Positions 18,832 through 55,131 of a stretch of 55,131 bases of DNA are shown here, one piece after another. The notes beneath the pieces were generated by a model. It was given only the letters and a program-made list of their open reading frames with translations. It was not told the origin of the DNA and did not search any database. Position numbers and translations under genes: made by a program. Source of the stretch: a virus (taxonomy: Duplodnaviria > Caudoviricetes). The first letter of the stretch is position 1. Each line of letters opens with the position of its first letter. The stretch is from the IMG/VR virus record IMGVR_UViG_3300038808_000030, positions 1 through 55,131 of that record. One strand, written 5' to 3'.

Positions 18832-18832
18832 T

Positions 18833-35829: not shown

Positions 35830-35832
35830 TGC

Positions 35833-35851
35833 GTGCCAAGCCTGCCAATGT
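35833..35851 (+). promoter_or_regulatory. Late promoter motif copy 7
   Basis: GTGCCAAGCCTGCCAatgT; 35836 to ATG 35859 is 23 nt. Confidence 0.78.
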
Positions 35852-35858
35852 GGCAAGC

Positions 35859-36269
35859 ATGCTGGACTACGACACGCTCGCCATCTACGCCTTCCTGCGC
35901 ATGCGCATCCCTGGCCTGTTGAGCACCGAGGGCGCTGTGGGCATTGGCTGGAAGCGCGGCGGGGTGCTGGTGGCCGGGGCCGTCTTCGAGCAGCACAACG
36001 GCCGCACCGTGTGGGCGCATGTGGCCATCGACGCGCCGCTATCACGCCGCTTCCTGCGCGCGTTTCTTGACTACCCGTTCGCTGTGTGCGCGGTGGATGC
36101 GCTGCGCGGCTACGTGCTCGCTTCCAACTCCAGGCTGCGTGCACTGGCCCGCCGGCTGGGCGCCGTGGAGGAAGCGGTGCTGGCAGGCGCTGCGCGCGAC
36201 GGCGGCGATGTGGTGGTCTGCACCCTTTGGAGAGGAAACCTGAAACATGACACGCTGGCACAGCACTGA
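35859..36269 (+). CDS. GNAT-fold protein (P22 gp14 position)
   Basis: LVAGAVFE, FLDYPF, VLASN...LARRLGAVEEAVL. Confidence 0.75.
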   Translation: MLDYDTLAIYAFLRMRIPGLLSTEGAVGIGWKRGGVLVAGAVFEQHNGRTVWAHVAIDAPLSRRFLRAFLDYPFAVCAVDALRGYVLASNSRLRALARRLGAVEEAVLAGAARDGGDVVVCTLWRGNLKHDTLAQH

Positions 36270-37892: not shown

Positions 37893-38941
37893 GCTTGGGT
37901 AATGGGTTTGGGGCCGGTTTGGGCCAAGGAATGCAATTCGTCAGAGGTATTGCTGATGCGTATCGCACTGGTCAGCAAATGAACGATGCGCGCGACCAAG
38001 CTGCGCAGAAAGAGGCGTTGAAGGGCATTGCCAGTGCCACCGCCGTGGAGTCCACGGGCTACACCGCCGACCAGGGCAAGGAGCTGGAAGGCCTGGCCGC
38101 CAACGGCTACAAGATCGACTTTGACGGCGCGCAGAAGGCCTATGTCGCGCGCAACGATGCGGGCGACACCAAGACCATCGCCATGCAGGGGGTGACCGAC
38201 TTCATGGGCGAGCGCTCGGCGGGCTCGATGAGCCGCGAGCAGCAGGACAGCACGCGCATGCTGGCCATGGCCGACGTGATCGGCCGTACCGACCCAGAGC
38301 GCGGCCTGCAGATGCGCCAACAGCTCACGCTGGGGGCGCACGATGTCAAACGCCAGGCTAGAGAGATGAAGCAATGGCAGCAGGATGACGAAGTGGGGCG
38401 CATCGAGGGCGAGCAACGAAAGCAGTTCCAGGCATCGTTGATTGACCAGAGCGGCAAGTCACGCGAAGCGACGATGGACGACCACCTTGCCCATAGTCAG
38501 CGCCGTATAGCTGCGCTGACACAGGCTGGGCATCTCAAGGCTGCGGACCAGGCTACCCAGGATTTGAGGGCGCAGTCGCACATCAAAATCCAGATGGATA
38601 CAAAAAGGCGTCAGGAGGCATCTGACAAAGCCGCTGCTGGCCTGGCGGTGGGCGACTATGCCCCGCTGATGGAGCTCTACAACCGCTATGTTCCCAGTGG
38701 CTACAAAATTTCCGGCATCGAGGCGGGACAGGGAGGGGCTTTGCAGATCAAGCGCACAGACCTGAATGGCCGGGAGGCGGCGCCAGTCACTCTTAAGGAC
38801 AGTGGCGAGGCTCTTGGACTTCTCAAGTCCATGGCCAGCCCGGCGGCGCTGTACCAGTATTCCCAGGGCGAGTTCCAACGCAGCTTGCGTCCGAGCCGAG
38901 AAACCGTCCCGAGCGGCTTGCCGTATGGCGCCTCCAGGTAG
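37889..38941 (+). CDS. Internal virion/ejection protein 2 (putative)
   Basis: MSLGNGFGAGLGQG start; helical Gln/Ala-rich; position. Confidence 0.65.
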   Translation: MSLGNGFGAGLGQGMQFVRGIADAYRTGQQMNDARDQAAQKEALKGIASATAVESTGYTADQGKELEGLAANGYKIDFDGAQKAYVARNDAGDTKTIAMQGVTDFMGERSAGSMSREQQDSTRMLAMADVIGRTDPERGLQMRQQLTLGAHDVKRQAREMKQWQQDDEVGRIEGEQRKQFQASLIDQSGKSREATMDDHLAHSQRRIAALTQAGHLKAADQATQDLRAQSHIKIQMDTKRRQEASDKAAAGLAVGDYAPLMELYNRYVPSGYKISGIEAGQGGALQIKRTDLNGREAAPVTLKDSGEALGLLKSMASPAALYQYSQGEFQRSLRPSRETVPSGLPYGASR

Positions 38942-38969
38942 CGCAGCACTGATCCTGGGATGCAGCCAC

Positions 38970-38993
38970 CAAGGCCCGCTTTAGCGGGCCTTG
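38970..38993 (+). terminator. Strong hairpin, terminator-like
   Basis: CAAGGCCCGC-TTTA-GCGGGCCTTG; weak U tract. Confidence 0.5.
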
Positions 38994-39025
38994 CCGTTTC
39001 AGGAGCCCGGGCGCCGCTGCCTGTC

Positions 39026-39044
39026 GTGCCAAGCCTGCCAGTCT
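39026..39044 (+). promoter_or_regulatory. Late promoter motif copy 8
   Basis: GTGCCAAGCCTGCCAgtcT; 39029 to TTG 39052 is 23 nt. Confidence 0.75.
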
Positions 39045-39051
39045 GTGCTTC

Positions 39052-41562: not shown

Positions 41563-41607
41563 CGCGGGGCCCGTTGCAGGAATCGCCGACCCGGGACGTT
41601 GCACACC

Positions 41608-41994
41608 ATGACGACATCCATTGAATCCGTCAGCCCGCCCGAGGACTCGGCGGCGCAGCTGCTGGAGTGCGAACTGCTGGAGATTGCCGAGCAGGAGCTT
41701 GGGCTGAGCGGCCCGCAGGCCTTGTCCGTTGCCCAGGCCATGTTGCGCGGGTTGCGAAAGCGCTATGGCGGCATGCGCATGGGCGCGCGTGGCGCCGCCA
41801 TCTACGTGCCCGCGCCCAGCAAGAAGGAGCGCAACGAAGCCATCCGCCAGGAATTCAACGGGGTCAACCGCAAGCAGTTGCAGACCAAATATGGACTCCA
41901 GCGGGCTCAGCTGTACCGCATCCTGGGCGAGCGGCGAGGCTCGGTTCGCAACGGCGTTTCCCATCCGGAGACATCGCTTTCCGTAGAGGGCTGA
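41608..41994 (+). CDS. Mor/C-family transcription activator
   Basis: YGG...IYVPAPSKKERNEAIRQEFNGVNRKQLQTKYGLQRAQLYRIL. Confidence 0.85.
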   Translation: MTTSIESVSPPEDSAAQLLECELLEIAEQELGLSGPQALSVAQAMLRGLRKRYGGMRMGARGAAIYVPAPSKKERNEAIRQEFNGVNRKQLQTKYGLQRAQLYRILGERRGSVRNGVSHPETSLSVEG

Positions 41995-42053
41995 GCCGTG
42001 CAGCGCAGCGGCGGACGGTGACCGCGGCTGTGCCTGGCATGTGCTTGAAAACA

Positions 42054-42080
42054 GTCTCATTTGTCGGCAGGAAATGAGAC
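42054..42080. promoter_or_regulatory. Dyad GTCTCATTT-N9-AAATGAGAC, candidate Mor-binding site
   Basis: Perfect 9-bp inverted repeat between the activator and the tail operon. Confidence 0.6.
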
Positions 42081-42271
42081 GCGAGGACAGAGAAACTGTC
42101 TGAACACGCCCAGCAGGGCGCAATGGAATCCAAGGATACAGGCGGTCTTTTTCCTATGTTCACCCACTCGAGAAACAACACCTTCAACACTGCGTCCCCG
42201 GTCGCAGGCTTGCCGGATGCAGCGGACGGTTGTGTCCGCAGCCAGACGGCCGCCACCAGAGCGCGCGCCTG

Positions 42272-42682
42272 ATGCTTCAGCTCGAATCCATCCTGGCCTC
42301 CCGCCTCAAGTCGTTGCCGGCCTTCGGGGGCTGGCGCGTCAGCGGAGCCAGTGAGTCCGTCGACGGCTCGGCCGTGCCTGCTGCGCAGGTGCGCATGGCA
42401 TCTGCCACAGGGGTGGCCGCCATGAGGACCGCGGCGCAGTTGCAGCCGACCTGGGTTGCCGCCCTGATGGTGCCGCGCGGCGCACAGGCTGCTGCCGCGC
42501 TGGGCGAGGCACTCGCGGCCTTGGTCGAAGCACTGCACAACTGGTCGCCGGGAGCGGTCGATGACCGCTTCTGGACCCCCTTCCAGTTCGCCTCCATCCA
42601 GGAGGCGGTTTTCCCCGACCCAGGCCTCGTGGGGTACGAGGTCGCATTCACCACCACGGCCCTGTTCGACGGCCAGCCGTGA
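42272..42682 (+). CDS. Tail terminator/completion protein (putative)
   Basis: LESILASRL...ALHNWSP...YEVAFTT; immediately before the tube gene. Confidence 0.7.
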   Translation: MLQLESILASRLKSLPAFGGWRVSGASESVDGSAVPAAQVRMASATGVAAMRTAAQLQPTWVAALMVPRGAQAAAALGEALAALVEALHNWSPGAVDDRFWTPFQFASIQEAVFPDPGLVGYEVAFTTTALFDGQP

Positions 42683-42709
42683 TTTCTTACCTTTGATTGG
42701 AGCAGCGAC

Positions 42710-43501
42710 ATGCCGATTGCACACCCGAAAAATGACTACCAGATTCCACGAGGCCGCGTCTACATCGACCTCTATGACGCCAACGAGCAACTGACGGGCG
42801 AGATTCCCATGGGCAACTGCCCGGGCTTCACCCTCACCGTCGCGGCAGAAAAGGCCGAGCATTTCAGCAGTGAAGAGGGCATGTCCGAGAAGGACGGCAG
42901 CTGGCCCATCAAGGTCACCCGTACCGGCGCCCTGACCTGCGACAACATCAGCGCGCGCAACGTGGCCTCCTGGCTGTCCGGCACCCATGCGCTGAAGACT
43001 CAGGACGCCACCCCCGTGGACAACGAGATCCGCGCCGTGGTCCCCGGCCGCCAGTACCAGCTGGGCGCCACCGCTGCCAATCCGCTGGGTGTGCGCAACG
43101 TCTCCACCGTGTCCATCAAGAGCGAGGACGGCCAGACCAGCTACGTCGCGGGCCGCGACTACAACCTGAGCCTGGAGACCGGCCGTGTCCAGATCATCGA
43201 AGGCGGCCAGATCGCCGCCGGCAAGGTGGTCTTCGGCTACACGCCCGTGGCCGGCCAGTTCGAGTCGGTGATGACGGGCGCCAAGACCGACATGACCTGT
43301 GCGATCCGCATCGTGTCCGACAGCGCTGCCGGCCTGGACAGCGACTGGTACATGCCGCTGGTGGCGCTCACGCCCACGGGCGAGATGCCTCTGATCACCG
43401 AGGACACCAAGCCCGTGAGCATGCAGTTCTCGCTGGAAGTTCTCAAGGGGCCCAACGCGCAGGCCATCTACCGCGACGGCCGTCCGGTCTCCATCCCTTG
43501 A
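42710..43501 (+). CDS. Major tail tube protein (siphovirus-type)
   Basis: YQIPRGRVY, MGNCPGFTL, DWYMPLVALTPTGEMPLI. Confidence 0.8.
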   Translation: MPIAHPKNDYQIPRGRVYIDLYDANEQLTGEIPMGNCPGFTLTVAAEKAEHFSSEEGMSEKDGSWPIKVTRTGALTCDNISARNVASWLSGTHALKTQDATPVDNEIRAVVPGRQYQLGATAANPLGVRNVSTVSIKSEDGQTSYVAGRDYNLSLETGRVQIIEGGQIAAGKVVFGYTPVAGQFESVMTGAKTDMTCAIRIVSDSAAGLDSDWYMPLVALTPTGEMPLITEDTKPVSMQFSLEVLKGPNAQAIYRDGRPVSIP

Positions 43502-43599
43502 TGTAAGCCTCCCCACCTGGCCACGCGCCGGGTGGTTCGCTCTGCCGCTTGGACAGGCGGCAGGGCCAACCAGAAATGCCTACAAAAAACCTCTGAATC

Positions 43600-46398
43600 A
43601 TGGTCGAGAAAATCATTTCCATGCTCACCAGCGCCAAGGATGCCTCAGTGAAGGCATTCGACAGCCTTCAGGCCAAGGCGGCCGAGGTGGGCGCATCGAT
43701 GCTCAAGAGTTTCGGCGCTGCGGTCACATCCGCTTTCGACAAGGCGGCCAAAGGGATCAGCAATGTCCAGACCGTAATTGACGGCGTGCAGGCAGTCCTG
43801 GATCAGTTGGCATCCAAGGCCAGCCAGGGCGCGCAGGCCTTCACCGGGCTGGGAGCGGCAGCCGGCTCGGCAGTGAGCGGGTTAGTGAGCAAGGGCATGG
43901 CCTCATTGGACGGCCTGAACTCCAAGCTCCAGGAGGTGGGCGCATCGATGTTCAAGGGCCTGGGCTCCTCGGCGGCCACGACGTTCCAGGGTGCTGTCGA
44001 CAGTGCGGCAGCCTTCGAGTCGGCAATGGACCGTGTCCAGGTCGCCACCGGCAGTTCGGCCGAGGAGATGGCCGCGCTGACCAAGGCGGCCACGGATGCC
44101 GGACTCACCACGCAGTACTCGGGAGTGCAAGCTGCCGGCGCGCTGGAAAGCCTGGCGCAGGCGGGGTTGACGGCCCAGGAGAGCATCGCCACTTTGCCGG
44201 CGGTCCTGAACCTTGCGCAGGCCGGCGGCATGGAACTGTCCGCCGCCAGCGAAGCCGTGACCAAGGCGGTCTCGGGCATGGGCCTGCAATTCGAGGATGC
44301 AGGGCGCGTGGCGGATGTGCTGGCCAAAGGGTCGGTGCTCACCGGCACCAGTATCGGCAGCCTGGCCGAGACCCTGGGCACGGTGGGCCCTGCTGCCGGA
44401 CGCGTGGGACTGAGCCTGGAAAGCACGGTGGCCATGATCGGCCAGTTTTCGCAGGCTGGGACCGATGCGGGGAAGGCCGGCTCGGCGTTCAACACCATCC
44501 TGGGCCAGTTCGCGGATCCGGCCAGCGCGTTCCGCAAGGAGCTGGGCGAGGCCGGCATTGTCACCGACGATTTCGAGCAGGCATTGCAGCAACTGGCCGG
44601 CAAGGGCCCGGAAGGCGCGCAGGCCATCAAGGCACTGGGGACGGAGGCCGGTCCCGTGCTGTCCGGGCTGCTCAGCCAGGGCATGGGCTCACTGAATGCT
44701 CTCTCCACCACGCTTGGCAACGCTTCCGGCAGTGCCGCCGACATGGCAGCAACCATGTCGGACAACCTCAATGGCTCGGTCAAGGGGTTCGGAAATGTCT
44801 GGGAGGGTGTCAAGACCACGCTGGGCACGCCCGTGCTGCCTGTTCTCAAGGAGGCGGTGGATGCGGTGGCAGAGGGCTTCCGCACTGCCGTTGCTGACGG
44901 CGCCATCGGGCGCTTCGGCGAATCGATTGCCGCGGCCTTCCGCTCCGGCCTGGAATTCGCCAAGGGCTTCATTTCCACGATCGATTTCAAGGCCGTGGGC
45001 GAGAAGCTGCAGGCCTTCGCAGACCAGGCCAAGGATGCCCTGACGCGGGTGCAGGAGTACGGCACGAATACCGGCAACGTGCTGAAGATTGCCTGGGGCA
45101 CGATGAGCGCTGGCGTCAATGGCGTGATGACCGTCATCTATGGACTGGGTGCAGTTTTCGCCGAAATCGCGAGCGGTGTCTCGAGTGGGATTGCATGGCT
45201 TAACGAGCAGCTCGCGAAGGTCTCGTTTGGCCAGTTGTCCCAGTCCTTCAAGCAGGCCGCGCAAGACGCCGAGGTGATGGCGGGCGGCTTCGGGGCTTCG
45301 GCCCAGGCCATGCGCGACAAGGCCACCGAGTCCCTGCAGGCCGTGGCCGACGCCGCTCAGACGGCGCGCAATGGATTCACCGGCCTGGTGCAAGGCTCCC
45401 AGGAGGCCAGTACGGCGAGCGGCGAATCGGAGCGCGCCTTCCGGCAGATGGCTGCTTCCATCGAGGAGACCGGCCGAAAGAGCATGGAAACCAAGGTGGC
45501 GCTGGAGAGTACGGCTGCGTCGACGGCCACCGCGTCACAAAGCGTCAGCCAGTTGCGTTCCGAATATCGGCAACTGATGGAGGCGGGCAACCTGCAGGCC
45601 GCTGCAGAGAAGCTGGAGGAAATCAACAAGATCCAGAAGGCGCTTCCCGAGTCCGCTCAGAGCGCGCAGCAGGCGGCCAAGGCGGTGGATGAAGCCTATA
45701 CGGGCCTGGACAAGGGCAAAGCCTCCTTGCAAGGTCTCAAGTCCGAGGTGGACAAGACAGGGAAAAGCACCAGGGACCTGAAAGACGCTGCCGACAAGAC
45801 GAAAGGCTCGAACGATCAGGTAACCCGTGCCGTGAACGACCAGCGTACTGCACTGGAGCGCTTGAATGCCGAGCGTGAGCGAGAGATCGCCGCGCAGGAA
45901 AAGGCCAACGAGCTCAAGGAACGAGAGCTGGAGCTGTACCGAAAGAAATGGAATATCGACAAGGAAGGCCACAGCCTGAACACCGCAGGCGAGCGAGTGG
46001 CACTCACCATTCTTTCGCGCACGGCCGTGCTCGAAATGGCCAAGGGCCAGGGGCTGGATGACGCGGCCGCATTGCGCGTCGTGGACCAGTTCGAGCAGCA
46101 GTACGACAAACCCGCCGGCATTTTCGGCGGGATCCAGGGCGGCGTGAATCCGAACGAGGTGAACAGGGCTATCGCCGATGCTGTTTTGCAGCAGGCGAGG
46201 GACAAGGTTGCCCAAGCGCAGAGGGCACCGCTGGAGTCTCCCACCCACACGTCCACGGTTGGGGCCGCAGCTCGGGTCATCGACCTGCGGATCAACGGCA
46301 GCTCGCTGGGCAATGTAAGGACCGACGCCGATGGCGAACGGGCGATCGAACGCCTGCTGTCGGAGCTTGAGCGCAGCAAGAACCTTTCCGGAATATGA
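43600..46398 (+). CDS. Tail tape measure protein (TP901-type core)
   Basis: FESAMDRV, TQYSGVQAAGALESLAQAG, LPAVLNLAQAG, RVADVLAK, MSDNLNG; 932 aa. Confidence 0.93.
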   Translation: MVEKIISMLTSAKDASVKAFDSLQAKAAEVGASMLKSFGAAVTSAFDKAAKGISNVQTVIDGVQAVLDQLASKASQGAQAFTGLGAAAGSAVSGLVSKGMASLDGLNSKLQEVGASMFKGLGSSAATTFQGAVDSAAAFESAMDRVQVATGSSAEEMAALTKAATDAGLTTQYSGVQAAGALESLAQAGLTAQESIATLPAVLNLAQAGGMELSAASEAVTKAVSGMGLQFEDAGRVADVLAKGSVLTGTSIGSLAETLGTVGPAAGRVGLSLESTVAMIGQFSQAGTDAGKAGSAFNTILGQFADPASAFRKELGEAGIVTDDFEQALQQLAGKGPEGAQAIKALGTEAGPVLSGLLSQGMGSLNALSTTLGNASGSAADMAATMSDNLNGSVKGFGNVWEGVKTTLGTPVLPVLKEAVDAVAEGFRTAVADGAIGRFGESIAAAFRSGLEFAKGFISTIDFKAVGEKLQAFADQAKDALTRVQEYGTNTGNVLKIAWGTMSAGVNGVMTVIYGLGAVFAEIASGVSSGIAWLNEQLAKVSFGQLSQSFKQAAQDAEVMAGGFGASAQAMRDKATESLQAVADAAQTARNGFTGLVQGSQEASTASGESERAFRQMAASIEETGRKSMETKVALESTAASTATASQSVSQLRSEYRQLMEAGNLQAAAEKLEEINKIQKALPESAQSAQQAAKAVDEAYTGLDKGKASLQGLKSEVDKTGKSTRDLKDAADKTKGSNDQVTRAVNDQRTALERLNAEREREIAAQEKANELKERELELYRKKWNIDKEGHSLNTAGERVALTILSRTAVLEMAKGQGLDDAAALRVVDQFEQQYDKPAGIFGGIQGGVNPNEVNRAIADAVLQQARDKVAQAQRAPLESPTHTSTVGAAARVIDLRINGSSLGNVRTDADGERAIERLLSELERSKNLSGI

Positions 46399-46790
46399 CG
46401 ATGACAGCCAAGAACCACCTATTGGGAACGCTTGAGATTCCCCGCGGGATGACCTGGACGGATGAATTCACATGGTCCGCCGTGGCGCGCAGTACGGCGC
46501 GCAGCATCACGGGGGCGCTGATCGTGGACGAAGCCGGCAAGTCTGCGGGACGTCCGATCACTCTGGAGGGGGATGAGTCCCATGGCTGGATCCGCCGCGC
46601 CACCTTGCTCGTGCTGCTGCAGATGGCTGGCGCCGCGGGCCAGGTCTACAGCCTGCGGCTGGCGGATGGCCGCGCCTTCGACGTGCAGTTTTCCGGCGAC
46701 GAACCCATCACGGCCCGGCCCGTCGGCAGGCCCGAGCTTCCCGCGCTCGCCAATCCCTATGTCGCAACGTTGCGGCTCATCACAGTTTGA
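46395..46790 (+). CDS. Distal tail protein (putative)
   Basis: WTDEFTWSAV...SITGALIV...GRPITL; follows tape measure. Confidence 0.75.
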   Translation: MTMTAKNHLLGTLEIPRGMTWTDEFTWSAVARSTARSITGALIVDEAGKSAGRPITLEGDESHGWIRRATLLVLLQMAGAAGQVYSLRLADGRAFDVQFSGDEPITARPVGRPELPALANPYVATLRLITV

Positions 46791-46802
46791 GGAGTTGAAA
46801 AT

Positions 46803-48665
46803 ATGACAGTCAGAGACGGCGATATCCGCCTGCTCGAATCCAAGGTCATGACCGATGACCCCAATGGCGGCGGCGGCCCTACGGGCAACGTCATCGCCTG
46901 GGGCAAGAGCAATGGCGTCTTCGAGGACATCACCGAGGTCGACCGGGCCGGCGGCGACGTGTCCATCCGCCAGGTGCACGCGGCTGTGCAAACGCCCACC
47001 ACTGAGCCGCTGATGGACACCAACATCATTGTCTCGGCCGTGCCCAACGATCCGAATGTGTCCATCACCATCGCGCCCTGCGGCGTATTCGCGCGTCGTT
47101 CGGAGATCGCCGCGGCCATCGCGGCCTACCTCATCCCGGGCACGGAGTGGGGCGGCTATCTGCTGGAAAACCACGTCCAGGGCCAGGCCTCAATCAAGAT
47201 CTTCCACCGGCCCGGCACACCGGCGCCGACCATCGGCCGCACGCTGATCCTCGTCTACAACGAGGGGCTGGCCAGCCAGGTGCTGCAGTACGTGCGCGTG
47301 CTGCGCGCCGAGACCGAGACCCTGCAGTTTTCCTATTCCAGCAGCGGCGGCTACACGGACTACACGGCCAGCGTCACTACGTGCGAGATCACCCCCCGGC
47401 TGCGCAGCGCCTTCCCAGGGTCGCCTCCCAACCGGGGCTGGTCAATGGACCCCAGCAAGACGCGCATCCGGGACACCACCGTGGCGGACGCGGCCAGCTT
47501 CTATGGCGCCCAGCCCCTGACGGCAGCTGTGCAGCTGGGCGAGAGCATGCTGCGGGTGGCCAGCATCTACACCCAGCTGGTGCCCAACTCCCGCACCGAG
47601 ACTGCGGCGCTGGACCAGCGCCCGGCCGGTGTGCGGCAGCTGGTGCTCGCCACCTCGCCGCGCGAGATCCGCGTGCCCAATGCGCCGCACACGCGCCGCA
47701 TCAAGGTCGGCCAGGAAAACCGCAGTTTCAGCTGGGTGGCCATCCTCAAGCCTTTCCCGGCGCCAAACACGCTGGCGGTCTCTTTCCAGGTCATGGGCGT
47801 CTGGTACACCGCCTCCGACAACGGCCAGGGCGAGCTGACCGGCTCGGCCGTGGGGACGGTCAACTATGCGAACGGCTCTGTGTCCGTGACGCTGCCTGCG
47901 CTGCCTGATGTGGGCAGCTCCATCATTTTCCAGTGGGGCGAGGCCTCGGCCTTCGTCAACCGCTCCAGCGCCACGGGCTGGCGACTGCCCGAGCACGCCA
48001 TGCGCCTGCCGCACCAGGGCATCAAGCCGGGCTCGCTGGTCATCAAGTGGACCTCGGGCGGCGTGCTGCGCACGGCCACGGACAACGGCCAGGGTGACCT
48101 GCAGGGCGCCGCCACGGGCGAGATCAACTACGCATCAGCCGCGCTGCTACTGCGCCCGCAATTCATGATCGACGCAGGCGGGCAGTTCGCCATCGAGTAC
48201 GACTATGCCGTGACGGTGAGCAAGAACGTCTCGGTCGTCCTCGACGCAGGCGGCTACGGCGCGATCACCCTGGACACCATCCCTGCGCCCGGCACCGTGT
48301 CCGTGGCGTGGATCACCGTGCGCAATCTCTCGGCCAGCTCCGGCGCCTCATCCGGTGGTACCTCGGCCTCCAAAAACGGCGGCAGCGGCAAATTCAGCTA
48401 CCTGCCCCAGGTGCCCCCGGCGCCTGCGCCCGTCATCACTTCGCGTGTGCCTCTATCCGATGGATCGACCACAGGCAAGTACATGGCCCAGGGCGGCGCG
48501 CGCGCCAGCGGCGGGGCCGTCTATATCGAGGTCGGCGCCACCAGCTCGCCCGAGGGCAACCACTACGTGCCGCCCGACGTCGATGGCGTGGTCTGGACCG
48601 ACGCCGAGTACACGGCGGGCGTCAAGTCCATCGGCGGCGTCGAATACCGGCGCTGGGGCGCCTGA
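46803..48665 (+). CDS. Tail tip/baseplate protein, N-terminal part
   Basis: DIRLLESKVMTDDPNGGG, NGVFEDITEVDRAGGDVSIR; repeated DNGQG...GxVNYxxG. Confidence 0.78.
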   Translation: MTVRDGDIRLLESKVMTDDPNGGGGPTGNVIAWGKSNGVFEDITEVDRAGGDVSIRQVHAAVQTPTTEPLMDTNIIVSAVPNDPNVSITIAPCGVFARRSEIAAAIAAYLIPGTEWGGYLLENHVQGQASIKIFHRPGTPAPTIGRTLILVYNEGLASQVLQYVRVLRAETETLQFSYSSSGGYTDYTASVTTCEITPRLRSAFPGSPPNRGWSMDPSKTRIRDTTVADAASFYGAQPLTAAVQLGESMLRVASIYTQLVPNSRTETAALDQRPAGVRQLVLATSPREIRVPNAPHTRRIKVGQENRSFSWVAILKPFPAPNTLAVSFQVMGVWYTASDNGQGELTGSAVGTVNYANGSVSVTLPALPDVGSSIIFQWGEASAFVNRSSATGWRLPEHAMRLPHQGIKPGSLVIKWTSGGVLRTATDNGQGDLQGAATGEINYASAALLLRPQFMIDAGGQFAIEYDYAVTVSKNVSVVLDAGGYGAITLDTIPAPGTVSVAWITVRNLSASSGASSGGTSASKNGGSGKFSYLPQVPPAPAPVITSRVPLSDGSTTGKYMAQGGARASGGAVYIEVGATSSPEGNHYVPPDVDGVVWTDAEYTAGVKSIGGVEYRRWGA

Positions 48666-48685
48666 TCAAACAAAGGAGAAAAATC

Positions 48686-50575
48686 ATGGCAGGAGTTTCC
48701 GCAGGCATCGTCTTGCAGACCACCAAGACATCGGCCAGCTCATCGTCAACGCACAGCCGGTCCAGCTACCAGACCAGCAAGACGCAGGACACAGTGCGCC
48801 ACCTGTTGACGGATGACGGCCGGGGCACGTTCGGCCCGGACGGCACCATCAACTACGCGGGCAAGTTTCTCAACATCAAGTTCGTGCAGCTGGACAGCAA
48901 GACCGAGGGCTACAACAGTGACTACGAAAACGCCCTGAGTTTTGAAGAAACCACGATGGGCGGCAATGGCAGCGACCCCAGCTTCTCCACCGTGTCCAAG
49001 GGCGGTGACCGCCGCGATACCTCGGTGAGCGAAGAACTGCTGGCGGCCAGCACCGTGACGGTGACTTACGCCGAGGACTTCACCAGCGCGCAGCACCATG
49101 TGATGAATTTCGTCCCCGAGCCGGTGGTGCTGGACCTGTGCCCCTATACCACCGACTACATCGTGCCGGGCAGCGTGCGGTTTCGGTGGATGGGCCACGT
49201 CTATGAGGACTACGACGGCGTGGTTGTGCGCGACCGCACTTCCACTTCACCCGGCATCGTCGCCGGCGCGCTGGACTACTCCAGCGGCGTGGCTCGGATC
49301 TTTGACTACCTCGTCGACGGCCCGGCCACGGACCTGGTGGTTGAAAGCCTTTGGACCGTGCGCCAGAACTGGTCCACGGCCAGCATCTTCATGCGCACGG
49401 CCGCCGCGCCCATTAAGCCCAGTGGCTTCGTGATGAACCTGTCCGATGCCACAGGCGAGCAGATCACGGCCTCGGCTGGCATCGACGGTGTGATTTCGGG
49501 CACGCACCTGCGCGGCAAGATCGACTATCAGAGCGGCGTGGTCGAGCTGCAGTTTGGCGACTATGTGCTGGACACCTCGCTGACCCCTGCCCAGAAGGCC
49601 GAATGGTGGTACTCGGCAGACGATATCGGTGCCGTCCAGCCGAACCGTATCTGGCGTCCCTGGCCGGTGGACCCGACCACTCTGCGCTACAACAGCGTCA
49701 GCTACTTCTACCTGCCGCTGGACGCGGATGTCATCGGACTGGACCCGGTGCGGCTGCCGCCCGATGGCCGCGTGCCCATCTACCGCGTGGGCAGCTACAT
49801 CGTGATCGGCCACACAGGCCAGGTCGGCCCGGTCACCGTGACCAACGGCCAGGTCATCAACTGTGGCCGCGTGCGGCTCTCGCGTGCCTATGTCATCGGC
49901 GCGGATGGCCAGCGTATCCAGCAGGGCTGGAGCGTGGATCTGGAGGCCGGCAAGATCACCGTCAGCGATATCACAGGCTGGGCCCAGCCGGTCACGTTCC
50001 AGCACCGCATCGAGGAGATGGCGCGCGTCAGCGACGTGCAGATCAACGGCATGTTGGCGATCACCAAGCAGCTGAGCCACGAGTTCCCCGTGGGCAGCGT
50101 GGTCTCCAGCGCGCTGATGGCCGGCACGCTGCGCGCCCGCGTCAGCCTGATGTTCGACCAGGTCACCTGGCAGAACAGGTGGCAGGACACGGTGGACGGC
50201 AGCGAGGCTCTGGCCAGCTACAACGACACCATCGCGCCCCTGGTCGTCACCAATGCCGGCGCGCTGCCCGAGCGCTGGATGTGCCGCTTCACCAGCGCGA
50301 CAACCTTCGAGTTCATCGGCGAGCACGTGGGCAATCTGGGCACGGGCTCTACCAACGCCGATTTCGCGCCCATCAATCCCATCAGCGGCGTGCCCTACAT
50401 CACGATCCGCGCCCTGGGCTGGGGCCAGGGTTGGAGCGCCGGCAACGTGCTGCGCATCAACACCGAGGGCGGCATTGCCCCCCATGCCCTCATCCGCACC
50501 GTGCAGCCCAGCGAGGCTGTGGCCGATGACTACCAGTTCGAGCACCTGGTGCGCGGCAGCGTCGACCGTCCCTGA
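48686..50575 (+). CDS. Tail tip/baseplate protein, C-terminal part
   Basis: AAGGAG RBS; YLPLDADVIGLDPVRLPPDGRVPIYR, GWSAGNVLRINT. Confidence 0.78.
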   Translation: MAGVSAGIVLQTTKTSASSSSTHSRSSYQTSKTQDTVRHLLTDDGRGTFGPDGTINYAGKFLNIKFVQLDSKTEGYNSDYENALSFEETTMGGNGSDPSFSTVSKGGDRRDTSVSEELLAASTVTVTYAEDFTSAQHHVMNFVPEPVVLDLCPYTTDYIVPGSVRFRWMGHVYEDYDGVVVRDRTSTSPGIVAGALDYSSGVARIFDYLVDGPATDLVVESLWTVRQNWSTASIFMRTAAAPIKPSGFVMNLSDATGEQITASAGIDGVISGTHLRGKIDYQSGVVELQFGDYVLDTSLTPAQKAEWWYSADDIGAVQPNRIWRPWPVDPTTLRYNSVSYFYLPLDADVIGLDPVRLPPDGRVPIYRVGSYIVIGHTGQVGPVTVTNGQVINCGRVRLSRAYVIGADGQRIQQGWSVDLEAGKITVSDITGWAQPVTFQHRIEEMARVSDVQINGMLAITKQLSHEFPVGSVVSSALMAGTLRARVSLMFDQVTWQNRWQDTVDGSEALASYNDTIAPLVVTNAGALPERWMCRFTSATTFEFIGEHVGNLGTGSTNADFAPINPISGVPYITIRALGWGQGWSAGNVLRINTEGGIAPHALIRTVQPSEAVADDYQFEHLVRGSVDRP

Positions 50576-50592
50576 TTTTTTGGAGATCACCC

Positions 50593-51780
50593 ATGGCATC
50601 CCTTGTCGATACGAGCGTCAAGCACTTCCTCTCAACCATGTATGGCGCGCCTGTGCAGAACGGCGTGATCGGCAGCAAGATCGCCGTGCTCGATGCCTGC
50701 CTGGTCACGGGTTTTGGTCTGCGGGCGGCCACGCGCATCACGGTGGCGACTGGCGTGGCCACGGTGGAGTTTTCTGTCGGCGCGTCGCTGCCGCCGCCGC
50801 CGGACAGCGTGCTCCTGATCGATGGTGCCGCTCAGGCCCTGCTCAACGGCGAGCAGCGCGTGTCCGAGTCGGGCAGCGGCGTGTTCAAGTTCCGCACGGC
50901 CGCGCCCGACAGCGTGGACACAGGCGCGGGCATCACGTTCAGGTATGCGCCGCTGGGCTGGGCCAAGCCGTTTTCAGGGTCCAACCAGGCCGTGTATCGC
51001 TCAACTGATCCGCAGAGCTATGGCATGTACCTCTATGTCGATGACCGCAATGCCCGGGCGACAGCGATGCGTGGTTACGAGAGCATGTCGGCCATCGATG
51101 TGGGCCAAGGCCCGTTTCCGACGGCGACCCAAGCAGCCACAGGCATCTGGTGGGGCAAGAGTGTGTCAGCAAATACCAATGCTGTGCGCTGGAGCCTTGC
51201 TGGCGATGCGCGCTTCTTCTTCGAGAACGTTGCCACTGGTTCGTCGGGTACCGCGACCAACACCGGCGGTGGCTCTCGCTGTTTTGGTGACCTGCTGGCG
51301 TTGCGGCGTGCCGGTGATGCATTCGCCTGTGTGATTTCAGGGGCTGGTTCGGAAGCGACCGCCTATTCAAATCCAAATGTGGGATCTCTTGAGTACTCCA
51401 GCACAACGACATTCTTCATGCCGAGGGCGATGACAGGGCTAGGCAGTGGCGTGAATCCTCGCTACTTCAGCTATATCGGAACTTCAAGCTCTGGTTCCGG
51501 CGCAGACACTGCTCTCGGCAATTTCCCAAGCGAAGTGGATGGGGAACTCAAGTTCTCGCGCACCTTTGTGGACAACTCTCCGGCTTCCTCCGGTACCCCG
51601 CGAGCTTTGGTGCCAGGCATCCGATATGTGCCTCAAGGGGGGCTGACGGCCTACTTCGAACGGGATACCTATCTCATTGAGGAGGGGACCGGACGACGCC
51701 TGCTCGCATCGCCGCATTCGACGGTTGCAGGGGGGCCTGCAGGTTACGGTTTTGTCGATATCACTGGCCCTTGGCGGTAA
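50593..51780 (+). CDS. Tail fibre/receptor-binding protein
   Basis: GAPVQNG..GS.IAVLDACLVTGFG anchor, PLGW; variable C-terminal half ending DITGPWR. Confidence 0.75.
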   Translation: MASLVDTSVKHFLSTMYGAPVQNGVIGSKIAVLDACLVTGFGLRAATRITVATGVATVEFSVGASLPPPPDSVLLIDGAAQALLNGEQRVSESGSGVFKFRTAAPDSVDTGAGITFRYAPLGWAKPFSGSNQAVYRSTDPQSYGMYLYVDDRNARATAMRGYESMSAIDVGQGPFPTATQAATGIWWGKSVSANTNAVRWSLAGDARFFFENVATGSSGTATNTGGGSRCFGDLLALRRAGDAFACVISGAGSEATAYSNPNVGSLEYSSTTTFFMPRAMTGLGSGVNPRYFSYIGTSSSGSGADTALGNFPSEVDGELKFSRTFVDNSPASSGTPRALVPGIRYVPQGGLTAYFERDTYLIEEGTGRRLLASPHSTVAGGPAGYGFVDITGPWR

Positions 51781-51785
51781 CAGCT

Positions 51786-52181
51786 ATGGCGGAAGTAACG
51801 AATCGAGTCACCTTGCTTGGACCTACAGCTGTGGTAGGGGTAGGGGGGCGAGAAATCTACCTCGGGACTGCCCGGCTGGTGCGCGCACTCAGCGTCGGTC
51901 AACTGGACTTCGTGCTCGGCGGCAACGGCCGGGGCCGCGTGCGCGGTCGCACCGTTGAGCAGGAAGACAAGAACAGTCCCAAGGTGCCCGTCTCACGCCG
52001 TGTGCGGCTGTACCGCGACCGCGACGGCCTGCTGATCCGCGAGACCTGGAGCAACGCCCAGGGAGAGTACGACTTTCCGGGCATCGACAGCACCACCGCA
52101 TACACCGTGCTTAGCTACGACCACGAGGGCGACTTCCGCGCCGTGGTGGCCGACCGTGTCACACCGGAGGCCATGCCATGA
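51786..52181 (+). CDS. Small tail protein with prealbumin/carboxypeptidase-regulatory-like fold
   Basis: RRVRLYRDRDGLLIRETWSNAQGEYDF...YDHEGDFRAVVAD. Confidence 0.75.
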   Translation: MAEVTNRVTLLGPTAVVGVGGREIYLGTARLVRALSVGQLDFVLGGNGRGRVRGRTVEQEDKNSPKVPVSRRVRLYRDRDGLLIRETWSNAQGEYDFPGIDSTTAYTVLSYDHEGDFRAVVADRVTPEAMP

Positions 52182-52597
52182 CCCTGCGCGGCGTTGAAAT
52201 CACCGTGGCCGCGAACGAGGCCCGCCTGCGGGGCTTGCGCGATCTGCTGCTGGACGTGGGATCGGGCACGGCCTGCGTGCGGTTCTTCGCGGACGCCGAG
52301 CGGCCCGCCTTCGGCGAGCCCTCGGCCCTGCCCATGCTGGTGGAGCTGCCGCTGGCCCGGCCCTGTGGCGAGATCGTGGCCGGCCGGCTGCGGCTGCTGG
52401 CCCGTGATGCGGCCGGCGCCATGATCCTGGAGTCCGGCATCGCCACCTGGGGCCGCGTCGTCTCGGCCAGCGGTGCGCTGGTGCTCGACGCGGATGTGTC
52501 GATCGAAGGTGGCGAGGGTCAGATCCAGATCCCGGACAGCACCCAGCTGTACGCGGGCGGCTATCTGACGCTGGCGCCGACCAGCTACATCGAGTAG
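52178..52597 (+). CDS. Tail structural protein
   Basis: LVELPLARPCG...GIATWGRVV...LDADV. Confidence 0.72.
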   Translation: MTLRGVEITVAANEARLRGLRDLLLDVGSGTACVRFFADAERPAFGEPSALPMLVELPLARPCGEIVAGRLRLLARDAAGAMILESGIATWGRVVSASGALVLDADVSIEGGEGQIQIPDSTQLYAGGYLTLAPTSYIE

Positions 52598-52601
52598 CGC
52601 T

Positions 52602-54500
52602 ATGGCACGCATCGAGCTGATCTTCCATCGCCCACCAGCTGCTGGCTCACCCAGCCAGATGGTGTTCGGCAACGAGGACGATTCGGACCCGGGCTCGACT
52701 CAGGACGCAGTCGCACGGATGGCCATCCGGCTGCCGGGGACGAGCGTGTCCATCGGTGCCTTGCGTCGCAAGACCGCTGGCGCCGGCATTCGCCTGCCTG
52801 GGGCACGCATGGCGCTTGGAGCGGCGTACCAGACGCGCACCGACAGGCCGGCCGTGGGGTGCACATTGTCGGGATTTGAAGAGGCCCCCTTGGCACAGGG
52901 CGGCCTGGTGTCTGTCTGCCAGCAGGCGGCCATTGCCGACAGGGTCACGCAGATTCGCGGTTGGCGAGCGCTGCACGCAGGCGCGGCCGCCGTGCAGCGC
53001 TGGCAGGACTCGGCGCGCCTGCGCCTGACCACGCGCCAAGGCATGGGCTTTGCCATGGACGTGGGGGGACTCACGGCCCAGGCCTGGCAAGAGGGTATGC
53101 GCTTGCGCCTGGCCACGCGCCAGGGCCTGGCCAACGCACTGGCTGGCCAGGCGGTTGTGCTGCAGAGGTTCCAGGAGGGCATCATTTTGCGCCGTGCCAT
53201 GCGGCAGGCTTTCAGCGACGGCCTCTGCGAAGGTGCCTGGCACGCCAGCAGCATGGGCGATGCCCGGGTGCTGGGCATCGTGATGGGCGGTGCCCGCCAT
53301 CAGGACGCCATGGCGCCGCTGCCCGGCGTCACGCCGGGCCGCCCTGTCGATCCGCCCAAGCCGCCACCGTGCTATCGGCCGCCGCCGGGTGGGGCCGTCG
53401 AGCTGGCGTTCTCGAGCGTCTGGAGCGAAAGCTCCGAACTCGTGTTCATCTGCTGCAGGCCGGGCACGGATCCCCAACCACCCCGCTATGTCATCCCGCA
53501 ACTGAAGGTTTACATGACAGTACACACGATGGAGGCAGCCCTGCTGCCGGGCATGGAAGCCGTTGCGCTGAGCGATGTGACGATCGCCAGCGATGACGAC
53601 GGCTTCGGATGGAGCTTTTCGGCCAATGGTCCGGAACACCTGCTGGATCAACTGGCGCCGTCCGGGGGGCTGCCTGCACGGCTGCGCGTGGTGGTCGATG
53701 GCATCGACTTCGTCTTTGTCGTACAAAGCCTGAGCCGCACGCGCAGCTTCGGCAACCATCGCGTGGCCGTACAGGGCGTGAGTGCCACCGCCTTGCTGAG
53801 CAGTCCCTACATGCCGGAGCAGACCTGGCTGAACACGGCGCCGGCCACGGCGCAGCAACTGATCCGCAATGCGCTGGAGTTCACCGGCGTGCAGCTGGAC
53901 TGGAAGGTGTCGGACTGGCTGTTGCCGGCCGGCGCCTGGAGCCACCGTGGCACGCCGTTGTCGGCCGTGATGCGCGTGGCCGCATCGATTGGTGCGGTGG
54001 TGAGCAGCCATCGGACGCAGGAGCGCCTGATCGTTGCGCCGCGCTTCGCGCACCTGCCATGGAATTGGGCGGATGCGACGCCTGACGTGCGCATGCCGGC
54101 GGACGTCATCGTGACGGACGAGCTGCGGCCCGAGCCGCGTGCCGCCTACAACGCGATCTATGTCAGCGGCCAGGCGGGCGGCATCCTCGGCCACGTGCGC
54201 CGGGCCGGGACGGCTGGCAACAAGCTGGCTCCCCAGGTCACGGATGCCCTGATCACCGAGGCCGTGGCTGCACGCCAGCGTGGCGAGGCCGTGCTGGGAG
54301 CATCGGGCAACAAGCTGGTCCAGTCCATCACCATGCCCTTGCTTTCCGGTGGGACGGCACCAGGCCTGATCCGGCCCGGCCAATTGATCGAAGTCGTCGA
54401 TACCGACGAATCCTGGCGCGGCCTGGTTCGTGGAACCCGTCTCAGCGCTGCCATGCCCGTGGTGCGGCAGCAGATTACCGTGGAGCGCGCAACCGTATGA
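52602..54500 (+). CDS. Tail hub/central baseplate-like protein
   Basis: DDDGFGWSFS, DWLLPAGAWS, YNAIYVSG, VRRAGTAG...APQVTDALIT. Confidence 0.75.
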   Translation: MARIELIFHRPPAAGSPSQMVFGNEDDSDPGSTQDAVARMAIRLPGTSVSIGALRRKTAGAGIRLPGARMALGAAYQTRTDRPAVGCTLSGFEEAPLAQGGLVSVCQQAAIADRVTQIRGWRALHAGAAAVQRWQDSARLRLTTRQGMGFAMDVGGLTAQAWQEGMRLRLATRQGLANALAGQAVVLQRFQEGIILRRAMRQAFSDGLCEGAWHASSMGDARVLGIVMGGARHQDAMAPLPGVTPGRPVDPPKPPPCYRPPPGGAVELAFSSVWSESSELVFICCRPGTDPQPPRYVIPQLKVYMTVHTMEAALLPGMEAVALSDVTIASDDDGFGWSFSANGPEHLLDQLAPSGGLPARLRVVVDGIDFVFVVQSLSRTRSFGNHRVAVQGVSATALLSSPYMPEQTWLNTAPATAQQLIRNALEFTGVQLDWKVSDWLLPAGAWSHRGTPLSAVMRVAASIGAVVSSHRTQERLIVAPRFAHLPWNWADATPDVRMPADVIVTDELRPEPRAAYNAIYVSGQAGGILGHVRRAGTAGNKLAPQVTDALITEAVAARQRGEAVLGASGNKLVQSITMPLLSGGTAPGLIRPGQLIEVVDTDESWRGLVRGTRLSAAMPVVRQQITVERATV

Positions 54501-54733
54501 GCACCGTCAATCTCTTCAAGCGTCTTGTCCAACTGCTGCCTGACGAGCCTGTGCTCACGGGGCGTATCAGTGCAGTGCATGGCGACGGAACAGCGACGGT
54601 CGATCTGCCTGGCAATGGCCAATTGCGCGTACGCAATCCTCTGGGCAGCCAGGAGGGCAGCAGCGTCTATGTCCAGGGGCAGGCGATCACGGGTGAAGCC
54701 CCTCAATTGACCTATGTGCTCATTGATATCTAA
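54497..54733 (+). CDS. Small tail-tip protein (OB-fold-like)
   Basis: NLFKRLVQLLP...ATVDLPG...VYVQGQAITGEAP. Confidence 0.72.
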   Translation: MSTVNLFKRLVQLLPDEPVLTGRISAVHGDGTATVDLPGNGQLRVRNPLGSQEGSSVYVQGQAITGEAPQLTYVLIDI

Positions 54734-54875
54734 AGGGTGCGCCAGGGCTTCGATGCAGGGTGACCGGGTAACTGGGTCGTGCTGCGGGGAGGCGCGGTCC
54801 CCGCGCTGCCGCCGCACACTGAAAACCGAGGGCAAATCCCCAATGCGGCCTTTCTGATGGGAAAAGCGCCTCGTT

Positions 54876-54881
54876 TATAAT
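54876..54881 (+). promoter_or_regulatory. Probable -10 box of the tig promoter
   Basis: Perfect TATAAT about 190 nt upstream of tig. Confidence 0.5.
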
Positions 54882-55072
54882 ACTTGGCTTCGCTTATCAC
54901 GGGTTGAGCGAACCATGCGAGGTCCAGGCGGCCAGGCGCATGCGATGTAAGCCCTTGAAATCTGAGGTGCCGCGCGGCCGACTGGCTTCGTTCCGCGATG
55001 CACCGTGACTTTGCGCAATACGGTGCGGGCTGCATGTCAGCCGGCACGGTCCAATCCCTCATAGGAACAAAC

Positions 55073-55131
55073 ATGGCCGTTACTGTTGAAACCCTTGAAA
55101 AGCTCGAGCGCAAGATCACGCTGAGCCTGCC
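55073..55131 (+). CDS. tig: Trigger factor, 5' end (host gene, truncated by window)
   Basis: MAVTVETLEKLERKITLSL; AGGA RBS. Confidence 0.92.
   Translation, partial: MAVTVETLEKLERKITLSL

Follow-up and report, generated by a model that had tools for sequence, protein, structure and literature searches.

A headless Chi-like tail cassette fused to a podophage late operon in Delftia: a candidate tailocin-like locus

INTRODUCTION

Why would a bacterial chromosome keep a complete set of phage tail genes, stripped of everything that makes a phage head, directly behind the late genes of a different prophage? The question is raised by a 55,131-bp virus sequence (IMGVR_UViG_3300038808_000030, Caudoviricetes; a complete IMG/VR record of class 'linear', with CheckV completeness of 76%), hereafter the window, in which the late operon of a podophage-like prophage is followed by a cassette of tail genes (41608-54733) that stops just short of the host gene tig. 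An original prediction, made from the letters of the sequence, had described this cassette as a headless siphovirus-type tail operon with its own Mor-family activator, and had offered three models for it: a tailocin that borrows induction and lysis from its neighbor, a chimeric phage, or a stranded remnant. From its gene content and its relatives, the cassette appears to be the domesticated headless tail module of a temperate Delftia siphophage, with genes that are kept intact under purifying selection. We put at about even the chance that it serves as an F-type tailocin-like system, driven by prophage late transcription via Mor and released by the prophage lysis genes.

RESULTS AND DISCUSSION

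A tail operon without a head

Open reading frames (ORFs) of the window were called with guidance from G+C content at third codon positions, and 50 of them were scanned against PHROGs and Pfam. The cassette comprises 12 ORFs on one strand, arranged and sized like those in the tail module of Acidovorax phage ACPWH (Table 1). No capsid, portal, terminase, replication, sheath or lysis family was found among these 12 in the PHROG and Pfam scans, which confirms the absence of head, packaging, sheath and lysis genes that had been predicted; the sole 'head and packaging' labels were weak, namely phrog_209 'portal' (E 2e-5) for the tail-terminator-like ORF and phrog_3758 'virion structural protein' for the 139-aa protein. 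The capsid-free state holds for 41608-54733 only, the adjoining same-strand prophage having capsid, portal, terminase and replication genes.

The tube protein is homologous to solved tail tubes of phages YSD1 and Chi, so that the tail is non-contractile, and at ~0.15 nm per residue the tape measure predicts a tail length of ~140 nm. Among the gene names first proposed, activator, tube and 932-aa tape measure held up, 'terminator' corresponds to a sub-cutoff match, and 'hub' and 'fibre' were not established. The tail-terminator-like protein is 51–60% identical to the product of the gene at the same position in two related siphophage proviruses (G066 and G064, described below); its AlphaFold2 model has a predicted local distance difference test value of 61, and a Foldseek search with it gave nothing at E ≤ 0.001, the best match having E 0.045 and the weak top matches being neck and terminator proteins.

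Table 1. Coordinates and evidence for the cassette genes, the junctions and associated features of the window
Feature	Coordinates	Strand	Evidence
Last podoviral gene, 836 aa, left fusion partner	39052..41562	+	phrog_14770 (3427-aa family), E 1.5e-108
Fusion spacer, podoviral/siphoviral, 45 nt	41563..41607	+	read directly; 7/45 columns variable, 7 haplotypes
Mor-family transcription activator	41608..41994	+	PF08765 28.7 bits (cutoff 24.9), residues 33-113; phrog_532 'late transcriptional activator'
Conserved regulatory block with dyad, relic of parental portal/protease intergenic region	42045..42098	+	match to G066/G064 spacer
Tail-terminator-like protein, 136 aa	42272..42682	+	directly upstream of tube; PF23840 22.3 bits, below cutoff 27
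Major tail tube, non-contractile, Chi/YSD1 type, 263 aa	42710..43501	+	phrog_807 1.9e-49; PDB 6xgr_A YSD1_22 major tail protein, 8vhx_G tail tube, E 3.7e-34
Tape measure, 932 aa	43600..46398	+	phrog_28420 2.6e-136; PF10145 3.9e-30
Distal tail protein, 131 aa	46395..46790	+	phrog_4408 5.5e-34; same position/size gene in ACPWH, G066
Tail-tip protein, 620 aa, N-terminal half of phrog_6128 family	46803..48665	+	phrog_6128 positions 1-287, 1.4e-138
Tail-tip protein, ~626 aa, C-terminal half of phrog_6128 family	48695..50575	+	phrog_6128 positions 593-1200, 4.8e-163
Hypervariable tail protein, 395 aa, candidate receptor-binding part	50593..51780	+	phrog_9998 4e-53; phrog_9600 'tail assembly protein'
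136-aa protein, N-terminal third variable	51771..52181	+	phrog_27013, phrog_21337
Virion protein, 139 aa	52178..52597	+	phrog_3758 3.7e-8; 93% aa identical to G063/G064
Tail protein, 632 aa	52602..54500	+	phrog_6079 'tail protein' 3.4e-110
Last tail-module protein, 78 aa	54497..54733	+	phrog_5076 6e-19; lysis genes next in ACPWH, G066 but not here
Right junction, ~90 nt, without homology to parent phage or empty site	54734..54822	.	host-homology comparison
tig (trigger factor) start	55074..55131	+	ATG at 55074, last 58 nt of window
Podophage lysis cassette, presumed shared: holin-like 80 aa, lysozyme 198 aa, spanin-like 165 aa	18833..20565	+	phrog_7 endolysin 1.3e-25; PF00959 Phage_lysozyme

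Some details of the gene calls bear on how the table is to be read. The Mor gene has an alternative TTG start at 41599. The 620- and 626-aa ORFs both match the 1200-aa phrog_6128, itself a family of unknown function; a frameshift between them was considered and rejected, the same two-gene split being present in ACPWH and all Delftia relatives. The start of the 626-aa ORF is uncertain, its frame being open from 48308 and its 5' end carrying indels between lineages, and indels near 48696-48709 occur in RNA-library contigs. An ESM Atlas search with the 395-aa protein returned unnamed clusters only, and PDB sequence searches with the 626- and 632-aa proteins returned nothing. For the 136-aa distal gene, BLAST high-scoring segment pairs (HSPs) begin only at nt 126-129 in five of eight copies. 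The 632-aa protein is 35% identical over 99% of its length to the product of the same-position gene of Acidovorax phages ACF1 and ACPWH.

Descent from complete siphophages

The same tail module, at 57–98% amino acid identity per gene, is found in three IMG/VR proviruses of CheckV completeness 100%, G063, G064 (44.2 kb) and G066 (42.9 kb), and these Delftia siphophages share with ACPWH (MH727593) an identical tail gene order from the tail-terminator to the 78-aa gene. G066 reads primase, a minor structural gene, small and large (659 aa) terminase subunit genes (terS and terL), a Mor homolog (128 aa), portal, a 702-aa protease-capsid fusion, two small ORFs (called decoration-like and head-tail joining-like from their translations), tail-terminator, tube, tape measure, tip genes, the 78-aa gene, a holin-like ORF and lysozyme. 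The window's Mor is 54–56% identical to the Mor homolog between terL and portal in G066 and G064. In both of these siphophages the Mor-family gene (L079:289-675, minus strand, in G066) lies inside the packaging/head operon and overlaps the terL stop by 4 nt, and a dyad element follows Mor before portal and recurs before the protease-capsid gene. Such a position inside the late operon is unusual for a late activator, and suggests a feed-forward relay.

Aligned with G066, the cassette reads as a trimmed version of the phage. Mor is kept, at 73% nucleotide identity over 41716-41922; a 66-nt piece (42046-42111) matches the portal-protease spacer of G066 and G064 at 77–78% and is followed by ~155 nt with no match; and everything from the tail-terminator start (42267) through the stop of the 78-aa gene, 11 genes, is retained. 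Of the phage map, the cassette lacks terS and terL, portal, protease-capsid, both connector-region ORFs, and everything from the lysis genes onward. The siphophages thus share with the cassette the dyad element, the Mor homolog and the 620/626-aa homologs, and have in addition the terminase, portal, protease-capsid, decoration, joining and holin-lysozyme genes that the cassette lacks. At least four deletions thus produced this minimal set, each of the four boundaries falling within ~160 nt of a retained gene.

Distribution of the fusion

In a scan of one genome per species, the 632-aa gene was present at 97–98% identity in the type strains D. tsuruhatensis NBRC 16741 (G001) and D. acidovorans NBRC 14950 (G002), both of which are collinear with the window over 42.6-55.1 kb and have the junction between the 836-aa podoviral gene and Mor. 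That junction, continuing into the tail genes, occurs in 11 assemblies: the window, the two type-strain genomes, six IMG/VR records and two metagenome contigs; a scan of IMG/VR with the tube gene found only the same six records. Over 41335-43501 (2167 bp) the 11 sequences form seven haplotypes, which differ in at most 148 of 2168 columns (≤6.7%) and by one 1-nt indel. Presence in 11 assemblies shows that the junction is no assembly artifact.

The full module was present in just one of 61 genomes of the same GTDB genus group, G001. Four relatives match only ~270 nt before tig (G048 at 94%, G039 at 92%, G054 at 91% and G007 at 88%). The original prediction had named sporadic occurrence with frameshifts in other strains, lack of expression and an artifactual junction as outcomes that would tell against it; the occurrence is indeed sporadic across related species, the ORFs are intact in every copy that could be retrieved and, as noted, the junction is real.

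Intactness, selection and recombination

The 12 ORFs were extracted from eight other genome and IMG/VR copies, some of which are partial at the locus ends or, in the distal genes of a mosaic lineage, diverged in length; the two metagenome contigs reach only Mor, the tail-terminator-like gene and the tube. No internal stop was found in any full-length ORF retrieved, and Mor is intact in all 11 copies. As a neutral expectation, 2.8% of random substitutions in the 12,648 coding sites would create stops, giving 14–70 nonsense changes per pair at K = 0.04–0.2; we saw none.

Ratios of nonsynonymous to synonymous substitution rates (dN/dS) were computed by the Nei-Gojobori method between distinct lineages. 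The comparison omits three records identical to G001 or G002 over the junction, as well as partial or length-diverged copies, namely, for the mosaic lineage, the tape measure, 620-aa and 626-aa genes and, for three records, the 395-aa gene; where tblastn found these copies, their HSPs are continuous. Values were lowest for the tube (0–0.065) and low for the 620-aa (0.05–0.11) and 626-aa (0.07–0.13) genes; they were 0.15–0.36 for the tape measure, 0.16–0.39 for the variable 395/136-aa genes and 0.14–0.75 for Mor, which has few changes (0.14 against G001). The backbone genes reach dS values of up to 0.2–0.3. The examination of conservation and dN/dS upstream of tig that had been proposed thus yielded intact genes and purifying selection, without the genus-wide conservation, the module being absent in the four relatives.

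Between G001 and G002, the cassette backbone is 94–99% identical and the adjacent tig-clpP-clpX-lon genes 95–99%; this match to the divergence of the host genes places the origin of the headless state at roughly the time when D. tsuruhatensis and D. acidovorans separated. The 395/136-aa region departs from the pattern, at 71–84% nucleotide identity vs. 94–99% elsewhere. In one lineage (L060/L070) identity falls from 97% to 76% at 45700, the whole distal half being replaced. The 620/626-aa proteins are 96–98% identical at the amino acid level (the 620-aa protein 97–98%) to those of G063/G064, whose tube is at 63% and tape measure at 54%. These patterns show exchange of the presumed receptor-binding genes by recombination with resident siphophages, and point to host-range pressure.

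Junctions and chromosomal site

The predicted placement of the Mor gene 45 nt past the last podoviral gene and on its strand was borne out by the coordinates, the stop codon of the 836-aa ORF lying at 41560-41562 and the Mor ATG at 41608. In the four full-length copies that were retrieved, the 836-aa gene is intact (four of four), with dN/dS of 0.13–0.33; tblastn of its product against 50,697 phage records gave zero matches. Second, diverged podophages are present in G002 (L061:3258-13169, G002:C24) and G001 (L062:6121-14859, G001:C32), with giant proteins of 3303 and 2912 aa that are homologous to parts of the window's 836-aa protein. The occurrence of these longer versions in the same two genomes argues that the fusion truncated a giant gene to 836 aa.

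At the other end, host homology restarts at ~54823 by eye (against G039) or at 54847-54862 by BLAST (G039/G048), that is, ~90–130 nt past the last tail gene. The module does end beside tig, as had been stated: in D. tsuruhatensis the ORF that begins in the last part of the window continues to 436 aa with Trigger_N, FKBP_C and Trigger_C domains, and clpP is next. The interval between the last tail gene and tig (54734-55073) has no transcription-terminator-like site, so cassette transcription could enter the tig-clpP-clpX-lon operon; RNA-library contigs over the 632-aa gene extend into tig.

The fusion point had been said to lack an att site, an integrase and a transcription terminator, and searches for these marks agreed with that. 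A 20-mer from the 3' end of tRNA-Leu had no match in the window at up to three mismatches, and a 12-mer at up to one mismatch had two, both inside the 859-aa podoviral gene and at chance level. No direct repeat of at least 13 nt links the right junction to the rest of the window, and no integrase was found among the 20 early-region window ORFs scanned. Over 38500-55131, a consensus scan found no sigma-70-like promoter, and 11 transcription-terminator-like sites were counted vs. 8.0 ± 3.5 in shuffled sequence, with zero at either junction.

The site itself is best seen in relatives. G048 has an empty site, with tRNA-Leu(TAG), its terminator, ~250 nt and then tig (L041), whereas in G039 and G054 the space from tRNA-Leu to tig is taken up by another island, of ~26 kb (L053/L054; G054:C7:272265-303897), with an attR that copies the last 14 nt of the tRNA and 66 nt downstream. 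The tRNA-Leu(TAG)-tig interval is thus an integration hot spot. Near their attR, the ~26-kb islands hold a lysozyme region that matches window 18825-19658 at 81% identity. In D. acidovorans, the IMG/VR record G067, which reaches the last tail gene, overlaps the tRNA-Leu contig of another assembly at 100% over 11.6 kb; in that species the block therefore forms one continuous stretch of ~45 kb, which reads tRNA-Leu, hipB/hipA-like genes, a regulator, a CI-like S24 repressor, a replication gene, terS and so on to the 836-aa gene, Mor, tail and tig. No integrase was found in the 6 kb after tRNA-Leu in D. acidovorans; an integrase beside tRNA-Leu in G001/G002, considered at one stage, proved wrong, the genes there being the hipB/hipA-like pair, the regulator, the CI-like S24 repressor and the replication gene. 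The hipB/hipA-like toxin-antitoxin pair (HTH_3; Couple_hipA and HipA_C; L052:865-2573 in D. acidovorans), directly after tRNA-Leu and before the immunity region, is shared with G001 and G039, whereas the genome with the empty site does not have it. The left end of the window's own element lies outside the record, which starts inside the early genes, and the G001/G002 contigs that match the window (C29, C26) have no homology to the empty-site flank. With no integrase, no tRNA 3' copy and no right-junction repeat found, the block looks grounded rather than excisable.

The dyad element, expression and a proposed mechanism

Sixty nucleotides downstream of Mor, at 42054-42080, lies a perfect dyad, GTCTCATTT-N9-AAATGAGAC. 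The version in G066/G064 is GTCCCATTT-N9-AAATGGGAC, in which both arms are changed and the symmetry is kept; in G066 the element recurs at the Mor stop codon, and in G036 it lies ~100 nt past the Mor gene. Among the seven haplotypes only one of 54 columns varies in 42045-42098, vs. 57 of 278 in the whole spacer between Mor and the tail-terminator-like gene, and the 43-nt invariant run in the dyad block has a permutation p of 0.00065. This invariance, together with presence after Mor elsewhere, argues that the element is constrained and travels with Mor. Sites bound by Mor and C in phage Mu serve as a model for our preferred reading of the dyad as a candidate Mor operator at an activator-dependent promoter; the paired change of the arms would fit an RNA hairpin just as well.

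Weak evidence for expression, at most, comes from assembled RNA-library contigs, which show neither strand nor level. Such contigs lie on the cassette in four of four runs (three organisms). In runs X1 and X3 a single contig spans 41203-45329, covering the end of the 836-aa gene, Mor, the dyad, the tail-terminator-like gene, the tube and part of the tape measure. Run X16 has contigs on the tube, the tip genes and tig and none on 35200-42514, a non-coverage that carries no weight.

We infer the transcriptional wiring, assembly, release and killing to run as follows. A deletion on the left would have joined Mor to the shortened giant-virion-protein gene with which the podoviral late operon ends, within the block between tRNA-Leu and tig. 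Upon podophage induction, late transcription would cross the 45-nt spacer into Mor, which, acting at the dyad-containing promoter region, would boost the tail operon. Free flexible tails of the predicted length would then assemble, the podophage holin-lysozyme-spanin set would lyse the cell and release them, and the tails may strike other Delftia strains in the manner of an F-type tailocin, with specificity set by the hypervariable 395/136-aa genes. A bolder version is possible, if doubtful: the tRNA-Leu-to-tig block could be a co-regulated 'two-particle' locus, in which one induction yields podoviral particles and, via the Mor relay, free Chi-like tails that kill rival Delftia or dock onto foreign tail-less capsids, the Mor-dyad pair being a portable adaptor for any late unit.

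Weighing the alternatives

Several observations count against a tailocin-like function. The cassette has no lysis genes and Mor is its only regulator; without the podoviral gene it was never found in the scans made, which leaves an independent function hypothetical. Its absence at tig in four related genomes (G048, G039, G054 and G007) means that there is no genus-wide fixed locus. The tail-terminator assignment is sub-cutoff in Pfam and non-significant in the fold search, and no tail-assembly chaperone gene was identified in the cassette, the related complete phages likewise having none between tube and tape measure. The near-identity of the 620/626-aa genes to those of live phages means that part of the low dN/dS may stem from functional phages, imported by recombination. 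RNA contigs may be DNA carry-over or pervasive low-level signal, two of the runs assembling to about genome size. Finally, an S24 domain is missing from the candidate repressor of the window, though present in the CI-like repressor of the D. acidovorans copy, which leaves SOS control hypothetical for the window. Among the models first proposed, the tailocin that borrows induction and lysis by read-through into Mor nonetheless fits best, given the trimming, the signs of selection, the dyad, the lack of a transcription terminator and the podophage lysis genes; its SOS induction would be hypothetical, and its locus is not fixed genus-wide.

The same trimming, selection and exchange could be read otherwise. 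Cassette tails might join the capsids of other elements (G066-type siphophages or tail-less satellites) and give them an alternative host range, a reading that we regard as unlikely. The intactness and selection data fit it as well as they fit a tailocin; the tail-terminator, which is the head-docking end, is retained and has kept the identity to resident siphophages given above; genes are actively exchanged between cassette and siphophages; and D. acidovorans NBRC 14950 has both the cassette and an intact related siphophage (IMG/VR records, one genome). The terminators have, however, diverged by 40–49%, a compatible partner capsid is only hypothetical, the cassette is wired to a podophage rather than to a siphophage, and we know of no precedent for a chromosomal tail-only donor, which also counts against it. 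Rather improbable, in our estimate, is that tandem prophages suffered chance deletions and left an inert remnant, intact either through recency or through repair by recombination with live phages. The giant podoviral gene was cut at the fusion (836 vs. 2912–3303 aa), attR, integrase and the lysis genes of the siphophage have been lost, exchange with intact siphophages is on record and the module is sporadic across related species, all as a remnant would have it. Yet the 12 ORFs are intact across seven haplotypes that have diverged by as much as 6.7%, with none of the expected nonsense changes; dN/dS is low (0.03–0.4), even in the cassette-specific Mor (0.14 against G001); co-divergence with host genes argues against a recent state; and none of the four deletion boundaries cuts into a tail gene or removes the dyad. 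The stranded-remnant model is accordingly disfavored by intactness and dN/dS.

A hybrid virion, in which the podoviral capsid uses the long tail instead of, or besides, its own short one, is very improbable. The single strand and apparently single late transcription unit are what it would call for, and the podophage giant virion/ejection-type protein is shortened; the siphoviral decoration and head-tail joining genes, which lie between capsid and tail-terminator in G066, are deleted, which makes such a particle unlikely, and the undecayed podophage makes it unnecessary: the podoviral virion genes are intact with dN/dS of 0.03–0.15, the 859-aa protein is intact, and the portal is of the podoviral family phrog_156. 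The chimeric-phage model, which had a head take the long tail while its ejection protein decays, therefore loses ground on both counts, the joining genes being deleted and the podoviral tail genes intact.

Relation to known systems

A precedent for two tail systems that share regulators and one lysis cassette is the R/F-pyocin locus of Pseudomonas aeruginosa, in which headless flexible tails have variable specificity genes. Pyocin loci have no capsid genes, are under PrtN/PrtR control, encode lambda-like tails and occupy a trpE-trpG site fixed across the species. The Delftia block differs in having a complete-looking podophage as neighbor and a Mor-family activator, and in being present in some species only.

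The closest described system is rhizoviticin, with which the idea of an F-type tailocin built from a chimeric prophage is already in print (PMC10811719). There, F-type pyocins are named as prototypes, and rhizoviticin, of Allorhizobium vitis VAR03-1, is presented as an F-type tailocin that is encoded by two prophage genomes combined into a chimera and has demonstrated function; its authors discuss a tandem-prophage origin, with intact parent prophages at tRNA genes. The likeness lies in a non-contractile headless tail set within a two-prophage chimera, rhizoviticin needing partner genes for its expression. The rhizoviticin tail part brings its own lysis genes, the partner gives only early/regulatory genes and the locus holds no heads (PMC10811719), whereas the Delftia partner still has complete podoviral sets of head, tail and lysis genes, and the cassette has no lysis genes and does have Mor and the dyad. 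There is no sequence relationship between the two, the Delftia tail being Chi/YSD1-like, and the function of the Delftia cassette is a predicted one.

The Delftia locus draws on two unrelated phage genomes, with relatives of BcepIL02 and Stx phages in the podoviral part and relatives of ACPWH, Chi-like phages and Delftia siphophages in the tail. To the flagellotropic siphophages YSD1 and Chi, the tube is homologous; only the tube matches by sequence, and no receptor can be inferred. Podophages of the Bcep22/BcepIL02 and 933W/Stx types share virion-protein relatives, a PAPS (phosphoadenosine phosphosulfate)-reductase-like gene and a giant-protein homolog at the late-operon end; the Delftia podophage differs from them in that the giant protein is cut to 836 aa and a foreign tail cassette comes next.

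A full-text literature search found no report of a Delftia tailocin, in keeping with the original description of the system as new. If the tails are made and active, this would be, as far as that search shows, the first tailocin-like system for Delftia and Comamonadaceae. It would also represent an intermediate stage in tailocin evolution, with head, packaging and lysis genes purged, activator and operator kept, and expression driven by a complete-looking prophage. Intact parents, an empty site and seven diverged copies make the steps from prophage to tailocin reconstructable, and two of the strains are public type strains. The hypervariable 395/136-aa genes would amount to natural specificity swaps and could guide the retargeting of flexible tailocins.

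The neighboring podophage

By ORF calls and the PHROG/Pfam scans, the rest of the window has a lambdoid layout. Early genes on the minus strand include an Erf-like protein and an exonuclease; an immunity region near 7.8-8.5 kb is followed by a replication gene, HNH and RusA-like genes. The plus-strand block then runs through terS, terL, portal (phrog_156), a holin-like ORF, lysozyme (PF00959), a spanin-like ORF, a scaffold-like protein, the major head protein (phrog_334), small virion proteins, a collagen-like fibre, the 859-aa internal virion protein (phrog_511), a 642-aa fibre with an assembly protein, and a virion protein, and ends with the PAPS-reductase-like protein, a 353-aa protein and the 836-aa protein (phrog_14770). 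The 859-aa protein matches Stx2-converting, Vibrio, Ralstonia and Burkholderia phages (374 records), and a 348-aa virion protein matches BcepIL02 and Ralstonia podophages (37 records); the prophage is thus of a Bcep22/933W-like podophage kind.

Where they could be fully aligned with the D. acidovorans copy, the podoviral virion genes (major capsid protein, five small structural proteins and the 288-aa virion protein) are intact, with the low dN/dS given above. Terminase and portal are ~79–81% identical to that copy, which we read as usual lambdoid mosaicism. A 1-nt deletion that splits the 859-aa gene in the IMG assembly of D. acidovorans was rejected as an assembly error, an independent assembly of the same strain having the full TTT and the same neighboring single-nucleotide polymorphisms; the lost T corresponds to window 31695 vs. 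G067:C1 ~20444, and is a caution for surveys of ORF integrity on single assemblies. Overall, the podophage genes show no sign of decay.

The lysis cassette that the tails would depend on, 22 kb upstream of them, lies between the portal and the scaffold/capsid genes, neither first nor last in the late operon; its holin and spanin are putative, proposed from a transmembrane segment and from coiled-coil composition in the translations. The D. acidovorans copy has a different lysis-cassette allele at the same position. The PAPS-reductase-like gene (PF01507, 37008-37892) stands among distal virion genes, as in Bcep22-type phages, and is 71% identical at the nucleotide level to the D. acidovorans copy vs. 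94–98% for its neighbors. At the left edge of the window (1-1400), the first ~1 kb has 47.7% G+C vs. 60–70% elsewhere; the record begins inside this low-G+C region, whose products are a D5-like/HNH-type regulator and that of a small ORF for which the PHROG label, 'RNA polymerase beta subunit', is weak.

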